From assembly GCA_023266115.1 (NCBI GenBank), contig JAHFRU010000003.1, positions 65,978 to 129,977 on the forward strand: DNA of 64,000 nucleotides. Direction: 5' to 3'. Below the pieces are notes generated by a model that did no database searches, was not told the DNA's origin, and saw only the letters and a list, made by a program, of their open reading frames with translations. This document shows, piece by piece, positions 2-28,334 of this stretch. The DNA is from Gammaproteobacteria bacterium. Lineage in GTDB: Bacteria; Pseudomonadota; Gammaproteobacteria; VBWC01. The translations under genes and the position numbers were made by a program. Within the stretch, counting starts at the first letter, position 1. Every line of letters starts with the position of its first letter.

Positions 2-430
2 TTGATCGGCGTCGTGCCTATCGTCAATCTGGAGTGGATCCAGAAGATCCATCGCGATACGTCGGCGCGTGGCTATTCTGCAGCGGCCGTGACCGACACG
101 ATCCTGCGACGCATGCCGGACTACGTGAAGACGATCACGCCGCAGTTCTCGCGCACCGATATCAATTTCCAGCGCGTGCCGATCGTCGATACGTCGAACC
201 CGTTCATCGCGCGTGATATCCCGACGCCGGACGAAAGCTTTGTCATCATCCGTTTCCGTTATCCGAAGAAGCATGACTTCCCGTATTACCAGCAGATGCT
301 GCACGGCTCATGGATGTCGCGCTATAACACGCTGGTCGTGCCGGGCGGCAAGATGGGCATGGCGATGGAGATCATTATCTACCCGGTCATTCACGACATG
401 ATGGAAAAGAAGCGCAAGGCCGCCGCCTGA
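2..430 (+). CDS. prk: Phosphoribulokinase, C-terminal part (5'-partial at window edge)
   Basis: Translation ...NTLVVPGGKMGMAMEIIIYPVIHDMMEKKRK matches the conserved PRK/CbbP C-terminus; the ORF runs off the 5' edge. Confidence 0.85.
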   Translation: MIGVVPIVNLEWIQKIHRDTSARGYSAAAVTDTILRRMPDYVKTITPQFSRTDINFQRVPIVDTSNPFIARDIPTPDESFVIIRFRYPKKHDFPYYQQMLHGSWMSRYNTLVVPGGKMGMAMEIIIYPVIHDMMEKKRKAAA

Positions 431-23067: not shown

Positions 23068-23821
23068 CCGGCGCAATGCGCTGCGCTTATTGAGCCCTAC
23101 GCGGGCTTATTGCTCCTACGTGACCAGGTGACTGATTATGCCGTTGGATCGTAATACGTTTATTCCTCGACGGCTCGAAGACGTGGACACCCTGCCAGGA
23201 ATAACAGTCTTGTCCAGGACATATTTTCGCGTCGCTAACGAGCTATGCGAAAACTTAAATAAAGGAGATGGAAAACATCCTGGCCACTTTTATGTATTCC
23301 CAGCCGTCATGTTGTATAGCGCGTCCATCGAAGCGTATTTTCAGGAGCGGCTATCAATAGCTCGGTACCTTACTCATCTCCCGGAAGCTGATGCGAAGCT
23401 TGACGCGCTTCGTGACCGAACATCCCTCTATCGAGATTTTAAACCATGGCTTCAAGAGGTATACCGGTTCTTTGATAGGGGAGGCGAAGGATTTGATTTG
23501 AATTCGGAAGAGTATCGGAATGTTATTGCACTCCAAGAATTGCGAAATACTATTCTTCACTACAATCCCGCGTTCATAGAGCACGTTCATTGGCCTGTGA
23601 ATCTCCAGGAAGCGGTACGTAGGAGTAAGATCGAAATACTTAATGCCGGCTGGGTAACCAATTTGTCTTCTCCACCTGTCGCCAAATGGGCACACGACTC
23701 CGTGCGTACCGCTCTAGAGTTATTTGCTGGGCTGTCAGGCGTAGAGGATGTCTTTTCTTGTGCTGAACCATTCAAGTGGGAATAGTTGGTAGGGTGCAAT
23801 AAGCGCAGCGCATTGCACCGG
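23068..23821 (+). mobile_element. About 754-bp low-GC insertion bounded by 29-bp imperfect terminal inverted repeats (MITE/cassette-like) carrying one ORF
   Basis: Left end CGGCGCAATGCGCTGCGCTTATTGAGCCC and right end GGGTGCAATAAGCGCAGCGCATTGCACCG are reverse complements (27/29). GC is about 47%, against about 63% in the flanks. Confidence 0.5.
23138..23785 (+). CDS. Hypothetical all-alpha protein with HEPN-like R-x4-H motif
   Basis: 215 aa; ELRNTILHY motif; atypical codon usage and GC; no recognised family. Confidence 0.6.
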   Translation: MPLDRNTFIPRRLEDVDTLPGITVLSRTYFRVANELCENLNKGDGKHPGHFYVFPAVMLYSASIEAYFQERLSIARYLTHLPEADAKLDALRDRTSLYRDFKPWLQEVYRFFDRGGEGFDLNSEEYRNVIALQELRNTILHYNPAFIEHVHWPVNLQEAVRRSKIEILNAGWVTNLSSPPVAKWAHDSVRTALELFAGLSGVEDVFSCAEPFKWE

Positions 23822-23834
23822 ATTTTTTAGAATC

Positions 23835-24047
23835 ATGGCGATGAACATTCAACGCCTGCTAATCACAATCGGAGTTTTACTAATGATCCTCGGCCTGATC
23901 TGGCCGTGGCTGCAGAAGTTGGGCTTAGGCAGGTTACCGGGAGATGTCGCGGTCGAGCGGGACAATTTCCAGTTCTATTTTCCGGTCATGACGTCAATCA
24001 TCGTCAGCCTGGTGCTGACGCTGCTGTTCTGGTTGTTTCGCAAATAG
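23835..24047 (+). CDS. DUF2905-family small membrane protein
   Basis: 70 aa with two TM segments, LLITIGVLLMILGLIWPW...IIVSLVLTLLFWLF. Confidence 0.65.
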   Translation: MAMNIQRLLITIGVLLMILGLIWPWLQKLGLGRLPGDVAVERDNFQFYFPVMTSIIVSLVLTLLFWLFRK

Positions 24048-24094
24048 TCCGGCGGGGATCAGGGCGCGCCGATGCGGCGACGCGCCCTGATGAC

Positions 24095-26410
24095 TCAATT
24101 GCTGGCGGCCGCCGCTTCCCTGGCCTTTTGCACGGTAATGCGCGGCGAGGTGTCGTTGTCGTCGACCGACAATACGAAATGGCCGTCGGCTTCGAGGCTG
24201 CCGGCGAGTTTGCGTGCGGACTCCGGCGAGTCGACGATGAACTCGACGACATTGCCGACATCCAGCGTCTTCAGCGCGTTGCGGGCCTTGACGTAGTGCA
24301 GCGGGCAACCATAGGTCGACAGATCGATCTCGCGGACCTGCGAGGCATGCGCCGGCTGTGACGACGGCAGCGAGGCCGACAGGTCGAGTTGCTTGTCGAT
24401 GTTCTGGCAAAAGGCAGCTGCATCGCGCATCCACTGATCGGTATCGGCCGATAGCTTCAGATAGGCCGCGTTATCGAGTGATGCCTTCAATTTTTCGCTT
24501 TCGCCAATAATCGCGGCAAGCCGGCGGCCCATGTCGGCGCCGTTCGGCGCCGCGGTTTGCAGCGACGCGGCGACAGCTGCCGGCGTTTCTTCCTGCTTCA
24601 GGCCCGAAACGAATAGCAGCGATTGGCCGACCAGCCGGCCGATCTGCTCAATGCATTCGATGGCCTCGGGAAACTTGCGCTGGGCCGCAAACGAATTGCG
24701 GCAGTCGCGCTCATAGCTGGCCTCGGAGAAACGTGACGCCACCAGATCCTGCGCGGCACCGGCGCATTCGCCGCCACCGAGTTGCAACACCTTGAACGCC
24801 GCCTGGTCGCCGTGATCGTGCAGTACCGAGGGAACTTCTTCGGCTGCGACGGCGGTCAGGTCCTGCAACAGTTCGGTGAAATACTCCTTACCTTTGCGGC
24901 GTGTCCAGTTGAAGAACGTCTCGTCGTTGTTGCGGTCGTCGTCAAACGTATCCTCGACGCGCTGGATCGCGGCCTCCACGCGCGCCGTCGGCAAGGACGG
25001 GCCCTTGAAGCCGATGCCGCCGCCGTTACGGCCGTCGCCGCCGAAGTACATCTGATAGTGCGGGATCAGCTTGCCGTGCAGGCGCTTGCCTTCGCCGTAA
25101 ATGCCGATGTCGCCGGACTCCGGTTGTGCGCAGCCGTTGTGGCAGCCGCTCGCGCGGATGCGCAGGTCGTGTTTGCCGCCGCTAAGCTTGGGGCCGATGA
25201 TGGTCGACGATGTGATCCCGAGGCGGCAGGTCGATGTGCCGGGGCACGCGACCACGTCGTCACCGGTCCTGGGCTCTCCCAGACCGAGTTTGCCGAGAGC
25301 GTCGCGTATCGCTGTGACGCGATCGGTCGGTACGTTGCACAGCGCCAGGTTCTGGTCCTGCGTCGCGCGGATATCGTCCAACCGTTCCTTTTCCATCATG
25401 GCGGCAATGCCGCGCAGCTGCGCGATGGTGACATCGCCGATCGGCAGGCTGATCGGGAAGATACTCAGGCCGTTCTGTTTCTGGCCGAGCAGCTGGCGCG
25501 GCGCGCCCGCGACCACGCGCACGTTGCCGTCCGCGCCTTTCTTCCAGGCGCTCATCATATGCGGCTGGTTCGCATAGGCGAGCCGCGTGCGTGCGACTTC
25601 TTCCTGATACTTTTCAACAAATCCTTCCGGCCCGAAGCGGTCAACCAGGAACTTGATACGCGCCTTGGCGCGGCGTTTGCGATCCGAATAGCGGTGGTGC
25701 AGCGATATCACCGCCTCCATGACCGGCAGCAGATCTTTCTCTTCAATAAATTCCTCGACTGTAACCGCTTCGTGCGGCTTGTGGCCGAGGCCGCCGCCGG
25801 CCATGACCTTGAAGCCAAAACGGCCGTCTTTATGCCGCGCGACGACGGCGAGGTCATGAATCATGCCCTGCGCGCAATCGGACTCGCAGCCGGAGAAACT
25901 GATCTTGAACTTGCGCGGCAGATGCTGCGTCAGCGGATGGCGCAGAAAACGGTTGGCGGCGCCGTGCGCCAGCGGTGTGACGTCGGTATGTTCGTGCGGG
26001 CAGACGCCGGCGAGCGCGCAGGCGGATATGTTGCGCACGGTGTTGCCGCAGGCTTCGCGTGTCGTCAGGCCGGCTTCGCCGATGCGGCGCATCACGGCCG
26101 GCGTGTCTTTCAGCGGGATGTAATGAACCTGAAAATCCTGACGGGTCGTGACGTGCGCCGTGCCGTGCTGCGAATACGTCTCGACGACATCCGCCACCGC
26201 CCGCAGCTGGTCCGGTTTGAGGCCGCCGCCGGGCAGTTTGATGCGCACCATCTGTACGCCGTCCTGTCGCTGGCCGTAAATGCCGTGCTGCAGACGAAAT
26301 GCCATGAAACGTTCGCCGTCCATGCCACCGTCGAGGAACGAACGGACGTTATCCTCGTAACGATCGATCTCGTCGTAATTCACCAGGCTGACTACTTTTT
26401 CATCCATCAC
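24095..26410 (-). CDS. Sulfite/nitrite reductase hemoprotein (siroheme-[4Fe-4S]) fused to a C-terminal TusA-like sulfur-carrier domain
   Basis: 771 aa. Residues 1 to about 545 carry NirA/Sir ferredoxin-like half-domains and cluster cysteines (CGNTVRNISAC, SGCHNGC). After an about 150-aa helical linker, the C-terminus is YGCPLHYVKARNALKTLDVGNVVEFIVDSPESARKL..., a TusA/SirA CPxP fold. Confidence 0.85.
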   Translation of the reverse strand: MMDEKVVSLVNYDEIDRYEDNVRSFLDGGMDGERFMAFRLQHGIYGQRQDGVQMVRIKLPGGGLKPDQLRAVADVVETYSQHGTAHVTTRQDFQVHYIPLKDTPAVMRRIGEAGLTTREACGNTVRNISACALAGVCPHEHTDVTPLAHGAANRFLRHPLTQHLPRKFKISFSGCESDCAQGMIHDLAVVARHKDGRFGFKVMAGGGLGHKPHEAVTVEEFIEEKDLLPVMEAVISLHHRYSDRKRRAKARIKFLVDRFGPEGFVEKYQEEVARTRLAYANQPHMMSAWKKGADGNVRVVAGAPRQLLGQKQNGLSIFPISLPIGDVTIAQLRGIAAMMEKERLDDIRATQDQNLALCNVPTDRVTAIRDALGKLGLGEPRTGDDVVACPGTSTCRLGITSSTIIGPKLSGGKHDLRIRASGCHNGCAQPESGDIGIYGEGKRLHGKLIPHYQMYFGGDGRNGGGIGFKGPSLPTARVEAAIQRVEDTFDDDRNNDETFFNWTRRKGKEYFTELLQDLTAVAAEEVPSVLHDHGDQAAFKVLQLGGGECAGAAQDLVASRFSEASYERDCRNSFAAQRKFPEAIECIEQIGRLVGQSLLFVSGLKQEETPAAVAASLQTAAPNGADMGRRLAAIIGESEKLKASLDNAAYLKLSADTDQWMRDAAAFCQNIDKQLDLSASLPSSQPAHASQVREIDLSTYGCPLHYVKARNALKTLDVGNVVEFIVDSPESARKLAGSLEADGHFVLSVDDNDTSPRITVQKAREAAAASN

Positions 26411-26467
26411 TAATCTCCGGGGGACTGACGGGCGCGGAAAAGGCGCCGATTATACGTCAATTGCCGT

Positions 26468-27250
26468 CTACGCTAGAACAAATTTGAAGCCAATCAACAT
26501 CAAAACGCTGGCCAGTAACGGTCGGGTCACGCGCTCGGGTATCACTGCTCCCAGATGGCTGCCGAGGTAGATTCCCGGCAGGGAGCCCAGTAACAACGCG
26601 CCAAGTAATGAAAAATCCACATTGCCGAGGTGCAGGTGCCCGAGGCCGGCGACCAGCGTCAGCGGCACCGCATGGGCGATGTCCGTGCCTACAATATGGA
26701 TAACCGGTAGCCGCGGGTACAGGAAAAACAGCATCGCGACCCCCAGCGCCCCGGCGCCTACCGAGGATATCGGCACCAGTACACCTAATAAGACACCGGC
26801 GAGGACCGTGATCGCGGCGCGACGGGCGGCAAGCCGGGGGGCGCTCGCCGCGAGCCGAGTGCCGAGCTGTTGAATCCGCTGTTTGAACAGGATCGCGATC
26901 GCGGTCAGGATCAGCGCCACCCCCAGTCCGCTGGTGATCAGCGTGTCGACCTTCCAGCCCTTCGCGCCAATAACGCTAAGAAAATAAACGGTTGCCAGCG
27001 CGGTGGGCACACTGCCGCTGGCGAGCAGACGTACGATGCGCCAGTTTACGGTCGAACGACGCGCATGCGCCCAGATGCCGCCGGTCTTGGTGATTGCGGC
27101 AAACAGCAGGTCTGTGCCGACGGCAAGCGCGGGTTGGATGCCGAAAACGAAGATCAGCAGCGGCGTCATCAGCGAACCTCCGCCGACGCCGGTCAATCCG
27201 ATGAGCGCGCCGACCAGGAATCCCGACGCGGTATACCCCCAATCCATCAT
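26468..27250 (-). CDS. TauE/SafE (TSUP) family sulfite/sulfo-compound exporter
   Basis: 260 aa with 7-8 TM segments and the paired GxGGG motifs typical of TSUP. Confidence 0.85.
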   Translation of the reverse strand: MMDWGYTASGFLVGALIGLTGVGGGSLMTPLLIFVFGIQPALAVGTDLLFAAITKTGGIWAHARRSTVNWRIVRLLASGSVPTALATVYFLSVIGAKGWKVDTLITSGLGVALILTAIAILFKQRIQQLGTRLAASAPRLAARRAAITVLAGVLLGVLVPISSVGAGALGVAMLFFLYPRLPVIHIVGTDIAHAVPLTLVAGLGHLHLGNVDFSLLGALLLGSLPGIYLGSHLGAVIPERVTRPLLASVLMLIGFKFVLA

Positions 27251-27413
27251 AGGTCCAAGGCATCCATGAGTTTCAGTAATTCAGGAACAATGGGTGGCCG
27301 TTCATGTGATCGGACCCGTCAGGCCCGAAATATACCAAAGTGCCTATATCATAGGAACTGCCAATAACTGCTATATTAATCATCTTTACGTATATCGGTC
27401 AGGATCCGCGATT

Positions 27414-28334
27414 ATGAAACTGCAACAGCTGAGGTATGTCCGTGAGGTTGCCCGTTGCGGGTTGAGTGTATCTGCCGCTGCGGCCGCGTTGCATACGGCC
27501 CAGCCGGGCGTCAGCAACCAGATACGCCTGCTGGAGGAAGAACTCAACGTCCAGATCTTCGAGCGTAACGGCAAACGTTTTGTCGGCGTCACGCAGCCGG
27601 GGCGCGCGATACTTGCCAAGGCCGAGCGGATATTGAGCGAGGTCGACAATATCCGCCAGATCGGTTTCGAGTTCACCGACGAGGCACAGGGCAATCTGTC
27701 GATCGCGACGACACACACGCAGGCCCGTTATGCATTGCCGCCAGTGATCAAGAGATTCACGGAGCAATATCCCAACGTGCGGTTGAGTCTGCATCAAGGC
27801 AGTCCGACGCAGATTTCCGACATGGTGGTATCGGGCGTGGCGGACATCGCGATTGCGACCGAAGCGATCCATTTGTTCGCGGATTTGGTGATGCTGCCAT
27901 GTTACGAGTGGAACCGCTGTGTGGTCACGACGCCCGGTCACCCGCTGCTCGACGAACAGCCGTTGACGCTGGAAGCGATCGCGAAGTATCCCGTTGTGAC
28001 CTATGACTTTGCGTTTGCGGGCCGCTCGAAGATCAACCAGGCGTTCGAGGAACGCCATCTGAAACCCAATGTCGTGCTGACAGCGATCGATTCCGATGTG
28101 ATCAAGACGTATGTGGAACTGGGGTTGGGCGTCGGGCTGCTGGCGTCGATGGCGTTTAATCCGAAGAAGGATACCGATCTGCGCGCGATCGACGCGGGTC
28201 ATCTGTTTGAACCGAGCACGACGCGCATCGGTATACGCCGGGGCGGATTTTTGCGTGGCTATATGTATGCGTTTATCGAGCTGTTTGCGCCGCACCTGGA
28301 TCGCAGGACAGTCGACGCCGCCACGCATACCTGA
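27414..28334 (+). CDS. cysB: LysR-family transcriptional regulator CysB
   Basis: Near-colinear with E. coli CysB (MKLQQLRYVREV...IATTHTQARYALP...HQGSPTQI...); divergent from the tauE-sir operon. Confidence 0.9.
   Translation: MKLQQLRYVREVARCGLSVSAAAAALHTAQPGVSNQIRLLEEELNVQIFERNGKRFVGVTQPGRAILAKAERILSEVDNIRQIGFEFTDEAQGNLSIATTHTQARYALPPVIKRFTEQYPNVRLSLHQGSPTQISDMVVSGVADIAIATEAIHLFADLVMLPCYEWNRCVVTTPGHPLLDEQPLTLEAIAKYPVVTYDFAFAGRSKINQAFEERHLKPNVVLTAIDSDVIKTYVELGLGVGLLASMAFNPKKDTDLRAIDAGHLFEPSTTRIGIRRGGFLRGYMYAFIELFAPHLDRRTVDAATHT

Follow-up and report, generated by a model that had tools for sequence, protein, structure and literature searches.

The stretch analysed here (hereafter the window) comprises 64,000 nucleotides of contig JAHFRU010000003.1 from the gammaproteobacterial assembly GCA_023266115.1, and carries an operon that is well supported as serving CysB-controlled assimilatory sulfite reduction in an uncultured autotrophic gammaproteobacterium. 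Its central gene encodes a sulfite reductase-like hemoprotein that continues through a helical domain with conserved cysteines into a TusA-like domain (Table 1). Residue numbers throughout refer to the listed open reading frame (ORF) of 771 residues. Translation probably starts at the ATG at 26407, which has a Shine-Dalgarno sequence (GGAG) 7 nt upstream, and the resulting product of 770 aa is identical to database protein P0001.

The reductase gene is preceded on the shared strand by the gene of a TauE/SafE (TSUP) membrane transporter, 57–60 nt away, and a consensus scan detected no terminator-like site between the two. The TauE protein matches PF01925 with 153.6 bits (gathering score 32.6) over residues 7–256 of 260. 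Divergent from this gene pair lies cysB, whose product exceeds the cut-offs of both the equivalog PRK12681 (469 vs. 436 bits) and the CysB family PRK12684 (512 vs. 402 bits) and contains both Pfam domains, HTH_1 and LysR_substrate. In the listed ORF, cysB opens with a GTG that lies 120 nt ahead of ATG 27414; homology sets in at M41 of that ORF, and the ATG is probably the true start, which would leave the extra 40 codons (27294–27413) in the AT-rich divergent region untranslated. Both the upstream transporter gene and the divergent cysB had been named in a preliminary description made from the sequence alone, and both hold at these scores.

Table 1. Positions of the genes, protein segments, and other features considered in this study (window coordinates, except for the last row)
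Feature	Position	Strand	Details
Reductase–helical Cys domain–TusA fusion	24095..26410	(-)	ORF present; Pfam
N-terminal-half Cys set, second cluster-type motif	25874..26050	(-)	C121, C131-x5-C137, C175-x3-C179
Canonical siroheme–[4Fe-4S] ligand motif	25130..25246	(-)	C389-x5-C395...C423-x3-C427; C-terminal half
Invariant flexible loop (predicted)	24749..24817	(-)	D532-H-G...F-K-V-L-Q-L-G-G-G-E-C549-A-G-A-A-Q554
Family-specific five-helix bundle	24398..24766	(-)	residues 549–671; contains C586 and C668
Variable junction	24335..24397	(-)	residues 672–692 (...SLPSSQPAHASQVRE); low conservation; place of the recoding run in relatives
TusA-like domain	24125..24334	(-)	residues 693–762; Cys702 codon 24305–24307
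TauE/SafE (TSUP) membrane transporter gene	26468..27250	(-)	first in operon; Pfam TauE
cysB/TauE divergent intergenic region	27251..27413	.	163 nt; AT-rich, candidate control region
cysB, LysR-type regulator of the cysteine regulon	27414..28334	(+)	divergent from operon; NCBIfam
GC-rich 10-bp hairpin, terminator-like without T-tract	24059..24090	(-)	read from sequence, TCAGGGCGCG...CGCGCCCTGA
DUF2905 small membrane-protein gene	23835–24047	(+)	70 aa; convergent with reductase; 95 bits
Orphan ORF	23138–23785	(+)	215 aa; 47% GC (third codon positions, GC3, 45%) vs. ~62% in flanks
PRK fragment	2–430	(+)	
A-run recoding loci of relatives (not in window)	L008:10027–10040; L077 near 6511; L084 near 6509		L008–L010, L072, L073, L075–L082, L084–L086, L091–L094

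Domain architecture of the fusion protein

Pfam annotation, as the preliminary description had proposed it, placed NIR_SIR (167.1 bits; gathering score 27), NIR_SIR_ferr (107 bits; gathering score 24), and TusA all above their gathering scores, with two stretches each of the first two in the reductase. The complete Sir/NirA siroheme/[4Fe-4S] core of that description is borne out by the two NIR_SIR_ferr/NIR_SIR modules and four invariant ligand cysteines. The closest solved structures are plant ferredoxin-nitrite reductase (NiR; 3b0h, E-value 2e-49) and NirA of M. tuberculosis (1zj8, E-value 5e-38). Residue conservation was counted over 60 aligned family sequences. Each of the four cysteines of the canonical ligand motif in the C-terminal half (C389, C395, C423, and C427) is present in 60/60, and they align with the plant NiR motifs 'vactgnqfc' and 'gcpnscaq'. 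The N-terminal half carries a further cysteine set of comparable conservation, comprising C121, C137, and C175 (60/60 each), C179 (59/60), and C131 (55/60). The positions of its C-x5-C...C-x3-C motif are not cysteine in tobacco NiR or M. tuberculosis NirA; the sole exception in this half is C121, which aligns with the active-site-proximal cysteine of NirA ('eaCgd'). The segment 'SGCESDCAQG' of the N-terminal half is paired by HMMER with the true NiR cluster motif, as a weak second domain, and the F420-dependent sulfite reductase 7np8 aligns to the same motif region (E-value 1e-7). This motif may represent a second cluster or siroheme site kept from a two-site ancestor. In NirA, a Tyr69–Cys161 pair adjoins the siroheme; the invariant Y45 of the window protein is only a candidate for the counterpart of Tyr69, as the alignment stops short of the Tyr69 region of NirA.

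Against the curated equivalogs, the reductase scored 114–212 bits at cut-offs of 457–756 bits (score/cut-off: PRK09567, 212/523; PRK09566, 210/594; PRK13504, 173/457; TIGR02042, 114/731; TIGR02041, 114/756), and is therefore a member of the superfamily that falls into no characterised family. Scores of 29–44 bits against the NCBIfam models of DsrA and DsrB reflect residual superfamily similarity. With regard to the substrate, the anion-binding motif reads PRKFK169 in the window, PRKYK in M. tuberculosis NirA, which is a sulfite reductase, and PRKWN in plant NiR; the sequence of tobacco 3vlx has the K form at this position. The PRK-x-K position is reportedly a marker of specificity, according to work on the N226K variant of tobacco NiR. 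Because of PRKFK169 and the linkage to cys genes, sulfite rather than nitrite is the likely substrate. It is well supported, as far as residues and gene context can tell, that the protein would be a monomeric, ferredoxin-type siroheme–[4Fe-4S] sulfite reductase, with cofactor content and substrate both putative.

Between reductase and TusA-like domain, the preliminary description had seen a helical linker of about 150 aa. This reading is inaccurate: the segment has invariant residues and forms a conserved domain rather than a spacer. AlphaFold2 (AF2) predicts five helices (549–576, 580–601, 610–618, 622–643, and 647–671), with C586 conserved in 60/60 and C668 in 58/60 sequences. No Pfam family matches the domain at E ≤ 10, and Foldseek against the PDB returned only non-significant HEPN-like or four-helix-bundle matches. 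Among 1.84 billion proteins searched, 72 representatives of it were found, and wherever the protein is of full length, the domain sits at about residues 500–680 of reductases of 676–777 aa. The most conserved stretch of the whole C-terminal extension is a block of invariant columns at residues 532–554, which includes the GGGEC549AG loop. C549 is present in 60/60 sequences, and all distant members that we read, TusA-less ones among them, retain the E-C-[AG] core. The predicted local distance difference test (pLDDT) of the loop lies below 50 both in the full-length model (mean 82.5; predicted template modelling score, pTM, 0.70) and in the C-terminal model (mean 84.0), and it is the sole internal segment of the extension with such values in both models. 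The Cys549 loop is accordingly modelled, and predicted, as a flexible, mobile arm.

The C-terminal domain matches TusA (PF01206) with 38.2 bits in the whole protein and with 43.7 bits (E-value 2.5e-11) when scanned alone (gathering score 28.6). The AF2 elements (strands 693–696, 721–725, 745–750, and 757–761; helices 704–714 and 729–741; pLDDT 80–90) give the predicted TusA fold, a beta-alpha-beta-alpha-beta-beta two-layer sandwich. In Foldseek, the domain model superposes on E. coli TusA of the IscS–TusA complex (3lvj_C) with a root-mean-square deviation (rmsd) of 1.4 Angstrom and a template modelling (TM) score of 0.83, and YeeE–YeeD complexes are the top structural matches of the C-terminal model. 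On the sequence level, similarity to solved TusA members is weak (best E-value 1e-3), and the NCBIfam model of YedF gave 25 bits at a cut-off of 79. The motif reads G-C702-P-L-H705-Y; C702, P703, and H705 are each present in 60/60 sequences, and C702 aligns at the start of helix 1 with the catalytic cysteine of 1jdq, 1je3, and 3hz7. The cysteine environment of TusA, whose absence on alignment was named beforehand as grounds for rejecting the domain, is therefore present. Of the CPxP motif noted earlier, the cysteine and first proline are invariant, but the second proline is a histidine, making the motif C-P-x-H. C668 of the helical domain goes along with this motif: it is a cysteine in 108 of the 112 sequences with a TusA cysteine and in none of five sequences without one. 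The junction between the two domains (SLPSSQPAHASQVREIDLS) has no A-run in the window, so that the fusion is constitutive here.

Four conserved cysteines and a histidine within about 155 residues could also point to a different role, in which C549, C586, C668, and C702, perhaps with H705, bind an extra Fe–S cluster or metal and form an electron-entry module for a reductase without CysJ. In the apo model the C549 loop comes out disordered, which is common for metal-binding loops, and the operon has no electron-donor gene (neither CysJ, DUF934, nor a ferredoxin is encoded near the reductase). However, only C549 is universal, C586, C668, and C702 each being absent in some members; cluster binding is not known for the TusA fold, and the spacing matches no known cluster motif. 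We consider such a module very unlikely.

Distribution and operon context of the family

A search of 5.8 billion proteins yielded more than 100 protein clusters with the identical three-Pfam architecture at 56–87% identity, and a scan of species genomes with a profile specific to the C-terminal part of the family confirmed loci in 103 GTDB species. Orthologues with the same fusion, for which the preliminary description had suggested a search, are hence plentiful, and its remark that the fusion is unusual holds only in part: it is rare overall, but common within one uncultured gammaproteobacterial group, to which these 103 species belong. The hosts of the 80 loci listed are all uncultured or unnamed Gammaproteobacteria, with labels that include Chromatiales/Chromatiaceae, Thiotrichaceae, Thiohalomonadaceae, Acidiferrobacterales, and Ca. 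Muproteobacteria. At 70 loci the fusion is in frame, and this applies to the nearest relatives from independent assemblies (P0002, 87% identity; P0003, 81%; L011, 85% for the C-terminal part). The databases hold an automatic name, 'sulfite reductase beta subunit-like hemoprotein/TusA-related sulfurtransferase', and in the literature, judged largely by titles and abstracts, we found no description of the fusion, the family, or the recoding described below. The family is recognisable by domain annotation and already auto-named, yet uncharacterised, and it differs from the studied reductases compared here in its second Cys motif, its private Cys-loop domain, and its tethered TusA. Regarding single entries, protein P0004 (1002 aa) shows 50% identity over 88% of the query and has the C-terminus 'EHPCPINFLKAK' followed by an Arg/Pro-rich tail; it may stem from a frameshifted or mis-called gene.

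The order cysB(-) followed by TauE, reductase, and PAPS_reduct (CysH type) is found in 46 of the 90 related loci, and contig ends cut into many of the remainder. A LysR gene stands in the matching divergent position in most related loci, and TauE lies directly upstream of the reductase gene in most. The wider gene order of the window recurs at L008, a locus of a Thiotrichales metagenome-assembled genome (MAG), in which dprA-DUF494-topA-cysB precedes TauE-reductase-cysH-rpiA-ilvA. Since the usual operon combines cysB with TauE, reductase, and cysH, we regard the enzyme as an assimilatory sulfite reductase of the CysB regulon; the CysB-linked sulfur-handling module that had been suggested takes on the more definite shape of an assimilation module. 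The same suggestion spoke of a TSUP exporter, of which the TauE/TSUP gene itself stands, whereas export is a family name and not a finding. In C. glutamicum, the TSUP protein CysZ is a sulfate transporter encoded with cys genes (PMC5840216), and owing to this precedent import by TauE is at least as likely as export.

The hosts, which include Chromatiales, Thiotrichaceae, Thiohalomonadaceae, and Acidiferrobacterales, also bring an oxidative use to mind, in which the siroheme enzyme would work in reverse and oxidise TusA-bound sulfane sulfur to sulfite for export by TauE, as part of a small cytoplasmic sulfur-oxidation module of a sulfur-oxidising autotroph. In sulfur oxidisers, rDsr is supplied by TusA, and the family name of TauE denotes a sulfite exporter; both links would suit such a module, and the PRK gene mentioned in the preliminary description is indeed found, as a fragment, at the edge of the window. 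The linkage, however, is to CysB and a CysH-type reductase of adenosine 5'-phosphosulfate or its 3'-phospho form ((P)APS); genes of the dsr, apr, soe, or hdr kind are not linked. By type the reductase belongs with the assimilatory monomeric enzymes, and the remaining window is housekeeping (gcvP/T, pepP, zapA, ilvA, rpiA, topA, dprA, def, fmt, rsmB, trkAH, and metH). An oxidative role is highly improbable.

Downstream of the reductase gene, a perfect stem begins 4 nt past the stop codon, between the convergent stop codons of the reductase and DUF2905 genes; the consensus terminator scan did not call this hairpin. The orphan ORF has no match in Pfam, NCBIfam, PADLOC, or PHROGs, and together with the DUF2905 gene it occupies the position that cysH has in most relatives. 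In the closest relative, L011, three unrelated genes are found at the spot of the orphan ORF, and owing to this difference from the window we regard the position next to the reductase as a variable (insertion) site. On the other side of the operon, the cysB/TauE intergenic region has a GC content of 44.8% vs. about 60% in its flanks. A control role of this region is inferred from its position alone; a consensus scan for sigma-70 promoters and terminators from 23700 to 27500 gave nothing useful.

A-runs at the domain junction of relatives and the status of TusA

Some relatives appear to lack TusA. Their proteins of 679–699 aa end in EKKK or in EKK-x(5-7)-SI, and behind these ends follows a complete TusA domain in the -1 frame, right after a run of nine or ten A (A9/A10) at the junction. 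The set comprises 13 GTDB species loci and five lineages of a 679-aa clade, i.e., 18 distinct sequences. In all 18 the shift is -1 and never +1, the run is A9–A10, and the 0-frame stop lies 1–17 nt downstream of the run. At six loci, a stop overlapping the beginning of the run blocks the -1 frame, and the shift must therefore happen inside the run. There is no in-frame ATG, GTG, or TTG before the shifted TusA domain at the recoding loci. In five unsaturated pairs, the ratio of nonsynonymous to synonymous substitution rates (dN/dS) of the shifted TusA segments is 0.10–0.21, which demonstrates purifying selection. The shifted proteins are 54–88% identical to each other, with the nearest in-frame relatives at 71–87%, and identical shifted products recur across independent assemblies, on at least 18 contigs in one case and at least 24 in another. 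In the 822 kb of species-level loci (57% GC), 20 A/T runs of at least 9 were counted at about 1.5 expected, and 17 of the 20 are located at the junction. The three runs elsewhere are L028:7082, L030:9354, and L037:620; the first of these lies about 20 nt inside a tblastn match to cysH.

Within the 679-aa clade, A10 is directly followed by TAA or TAG in five lineages, and the in-frame relatives have A11 or A9. The change can be as small as one nucleotide: L095:3528 has A11 and is in frame (759 aa), L093:3528 has A10 and is shifted (679 aa), and the proteins are 87% identical. This difference of one A suggests that lineages switch between a constitutive and a recoded state. L008 has a 13-bp hairpin (L008:10037–10085; -21.8 kcal/mol, z -5.7) that begins about 7 nt downstream of A_AAA_AAG-UAA, in the classical layout of a -1 frameshift cassette, but it is not conserved in the four sisters L091–L094. 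Recoding sites of the other clade show no significant 3' structure. As the strong 3' hairpin is restricted to L008 and unconserved, we do not claim a dnaX-like cassette. The conserved A-run and the low dN/dS behind it indicate programmed -1 recoding at the junction, as judged from the sequences. The A-run is the sole universal element of the recoding sites. The most parsimonious cause would be slippage, either during transcription or, without a stimulator, of the ribosome by -1 on A_AAA_AAG or A_AAA_AAA, and both isoforms would also be expected from the four in-frame loci with A9 (L029, L036, L040, and L044).

The frameshifts in relatives, or the fusion itself, might alternatively be sequencing or assembly artefacts. 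Homopolymers are error-prone, all sequences are metagenomic, and the A11 of L095 and A10 of L093 differ by a single A. Against this stand the window junction, which has no homopolymer, the repetition of the fusion in independent assemblies at 81–87% identity, and shifts that are always -1, with the same products on the two contig sets given above, a divergence span of 54–88%, and the low dN/dS. The probability of an artefact is close to negligible. Phase variation or homopolymer error as a cause of the shifts was ruled out by direction bias, divergence depth, dN/dS, and reproducibility. A stop codon between the two parts in close relatives had been named as a sign of an artefact. Such a stop is literally met in some relatives at 54–64% identity, but these are conserved -1 recoding sites and not separate genes, and the closest relatives of the window protein are all in frame, so that the window fusion is no artefact.

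TusA is also absent or altered without any recoding. The species-level loci L070 and L083 end after the helical domain with cysH directly next, and a distant group of 676–701 aa has no TusA. Five distant members (P0142, P0145, P0148, P0157, and P0163) possess a TusA-like domain in which the position of the cysteine is taken by Gly, Pro, Ser, Thr, or Ala; H705 and C668 are missing from them too, the GGGECAG loop is retained, and the five may form one lineage. As relatives drop the domain, lose its cysteine, or make the domain conditional by recoding, we regard TusA as an accessory.

The members without the cysteine lead to the question of whether the TusA-like domain serves mainly for docking or regulation, without sulfur chemistry, tethering the reductase to the TSUP protein (as YeeD on YeeE), to CysH, or to ferredoxin, with the cysteine used for binding or redox sensing. 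At least for the Cys-less domains such a role is needed. The TusA-family protein YeeD binds a membrane transporter, and the cysteines of YeeD and TusA are reported to matter for partner binding (PMC11073785). Yet C-P-x-H is invariant within the clade of the window and in all recoded lineages, and across the related loci TusA shows no pattern of co-occurrence with an adjacent TauE or cysH: in many TusA-bearing loci TauE or cysH is not adjacent, and the TusA-less L070 and L083 have both. Docking as the main role of the domain is quite unlikely.

Proposed function and comparison with known systems

Our best explanation for the whole, which we hold at somewhat less than an even chance, is a CysB-controlled assimilatory sulfite reductase of an uncharacterised family with a C-terminal Cys relay, in which the inward direction is preferred and TusA is an accessory. 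From composition, conservation, context, and distribution of the family we infer both the sulfur transfer and its direction. The C-terminal module would act as a Cys relay attached to the reductase, with the mobile Cys549 loop as the inner station beside the catalytic core and Cys702, Cys668, and His705 as the outer station. In the inward direction, Cys702 would react with oxidised sulfur donors (thiosulfate, protein or low-molecular S-sulfonates), as YeeD does, retain the sulfane sulfur as a persulfide, and pass the sulfite part on to the siroheme site beside it, so that no free sulfite would escape. Sulfite produced by CysH from (P)APS would enter the same siroheme site, and the TSUP protein would supply or balance an anion. 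For a relay speak the universal C549, its low-pLDDT loop, and the co-variation of C668 with the cysteine and histidine of TusA. The cysteine of YeeD carries -S-S2O3-, -S-SO3-, and -S-S- and yields sulfide and sulfite (PMC11073785). Its authors give the acceptors of 'S or SO3' as unknown (PMC11073785); a sulfite reductase would be the obvious SO3 acceptor. Such an extension of the substrate range fits a dispensable, tunable TusA domain. The direct channelling of a sulfur intermediate, which had been suggested for the tethered carrier, is a plausible hypothesis. We favour the inward direction tentatively, as a possibility that we rate well below even.

Several observations weigh against this explanation. 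The scores far under every NCBIfam cut-off for CysI, Sir, or NirA mean that the substrate is read from context, and part of that context is missing here: the window, L011, and L091 have no cysH beside the reductase gene, and no cysH occurs anywhere in the 64-kb window, in which the sulfite source of the enzyme is thus not seen. The motif of the outer station deviates from that of TusA by the invariant histidine in place of the second proline. As distant TusA-like domains lack the cysteine, the domain must also have a Cys-independent role. Furthermore, thiosulfate handling alone does not explain the universal loop cysteine in TusA-less enzymes, and the data do not favour the inward over the outward direction.

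In the outward direction, the Cys549 arm would reach into the substrate channel, attack partly reduced, siroheme-bound sulfur, and carry S(0) to a persulfide on Cys702, i.e., a DsrC-like off-loading by which part of the sulfur enters a persulfide relay (thio-cofactors, Fe–S, and tRNA thiolation), bypassing free sulfide and cysteine desulfurase. The invariant, Gly-rich Cys loop beside the core is predicted to be flexible, and its universal cysteine fits this direction better. The TusA proteins known so far carry persulfides, and the domain superposes closely on the TusA of the IscS complex. The pairing of C668 with C702/H705 recalls two-Cys DsrC chemistry, and sub-stoichiometric TusA isoforms in the recoding lineages would suit the diversion of a minor flux. 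On the other hand, there is no homology to DsrC, with one internal loop cysteine instead of a two-Cys arm at the C-terminus; assimilatory reductases are noted for retaining their intermediates, and off-loading has no known precedent among them. TusA-less and Cys-less relatives exist, and neither the window nor the conserved neighbourhood encodes an acceptor (TusBCD, DsrE, or MoaD-type). We consider outward transfer rather unlikely.

In the textbook view, assimilatory sulfite reductases take free sulfite and release free sulfide. If the Cys relay exists, the family could differ from them by a built-in Cys co-substrate: the Cys549 arm would exchange sulfur species with the siroheme, and TusA would link it to persulfide and S-sulfonate traffic, so that sulfate and thiosulfate assimilation would be joined directly to a sulfur relay, with neither sulfite nor sulfide set free. 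In some lineages the share of TusA-bearing enzyme would be set by -1 recoding, the efficiency of which could depend on tRNA-Lys thiolation, and with its second Cys motif the enzyme might be the first monomeric reductase with both ancestral cofactor sites. This wider picture is doubtful as a whole. With its private Cys arm and covalent sulfur carrier, the family hints at a route on which a toxic intermediate stays protein-bound and protected, and it is a natural candidate for the missing 'acceptor of S or SO3' of the YeeD/TusA field. The second cluster motif bears on how monomeric enzymes arose from an ancestor with two sites. With the A-run frameshift, relatives add a new case of recoding and a genetic sign that TusA is a tunable accessory. 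All members come from uncultured sulfur-cycling Gammaproteobacteria, and the window gene, being in frame, is the simplest entry for heterologous expression.

Compared to known systems, the core resembles NirA/SirA (1zj8), plant NiR (3b0h and 2akj), maize sulfite reductase (5h8v), and CysI (1aop) in having two pseudo-repeats in one chain, the canonical Cys motif, and PRK-x-K. Unlike these solved reductases, it has a further full Cys motif within its N-terminal half and a C-terminal extension of about 250 residues (helical Cys domain and TusA). With regard to gene organisation, the reductase gene stands in an operon with cysH in related loci, as in the mycobacterial sirA-cysH pair. The cys cluster of C. 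glutamicum (ferredoxin-type CysI, CysH, and CysZ) likewise has a TSUP/DUF81 protein beside the genes of sulfite and APS/PAPS reductase (PMC5840216); however, regulator and gene order differ, and its CysI has neither TusA nor the helical domain.

DsrAB–DsrC is similar by analogy only, as a siroheme reductase with a flexible conserved Cys segment that may extend to the active site, and both halves of the window protein keep cluster-type Cys motifs like DsrA and DsrB. DsrC has a C-terminal arm with two conserved cysteines about 10 residues apart. In contrast, the window protein has a single loop cysteine inside the same chain, shows no homology to DsrC (no DsrC match in Pfam or NCBIfam), and is assimilatory in type and context. 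The recoding of relatives is comparable to that of dnaX (A_AAA_AAG in E. coli; transcriptional slippage in Thermus): A9–A10 lies at a domain boundary, a 0-frame stop is near, and two products are expected. It differs from E. coli dnaX in that the shift extends the protein and that there is no conserved 3' stimulator.

The TusA-like domain shares its fold and the Cys-Pro that opens helix 1 with TusA (3lvj), YedF (1je3), and TM0983 (1jdq). It stands apart from the TusA family by C-P-x-H and by its fusion to a soluble redox enzyme, as other members are free-standing or on a transporter. As a natural fusion to its partner it recalls the YeeE–YeeD fusions of YeeD/TsuB from the YeeE–YeeD thiosulfate uptake system (8k1r and 8j4c), the chemistry of which would feed a sulfite reductase.

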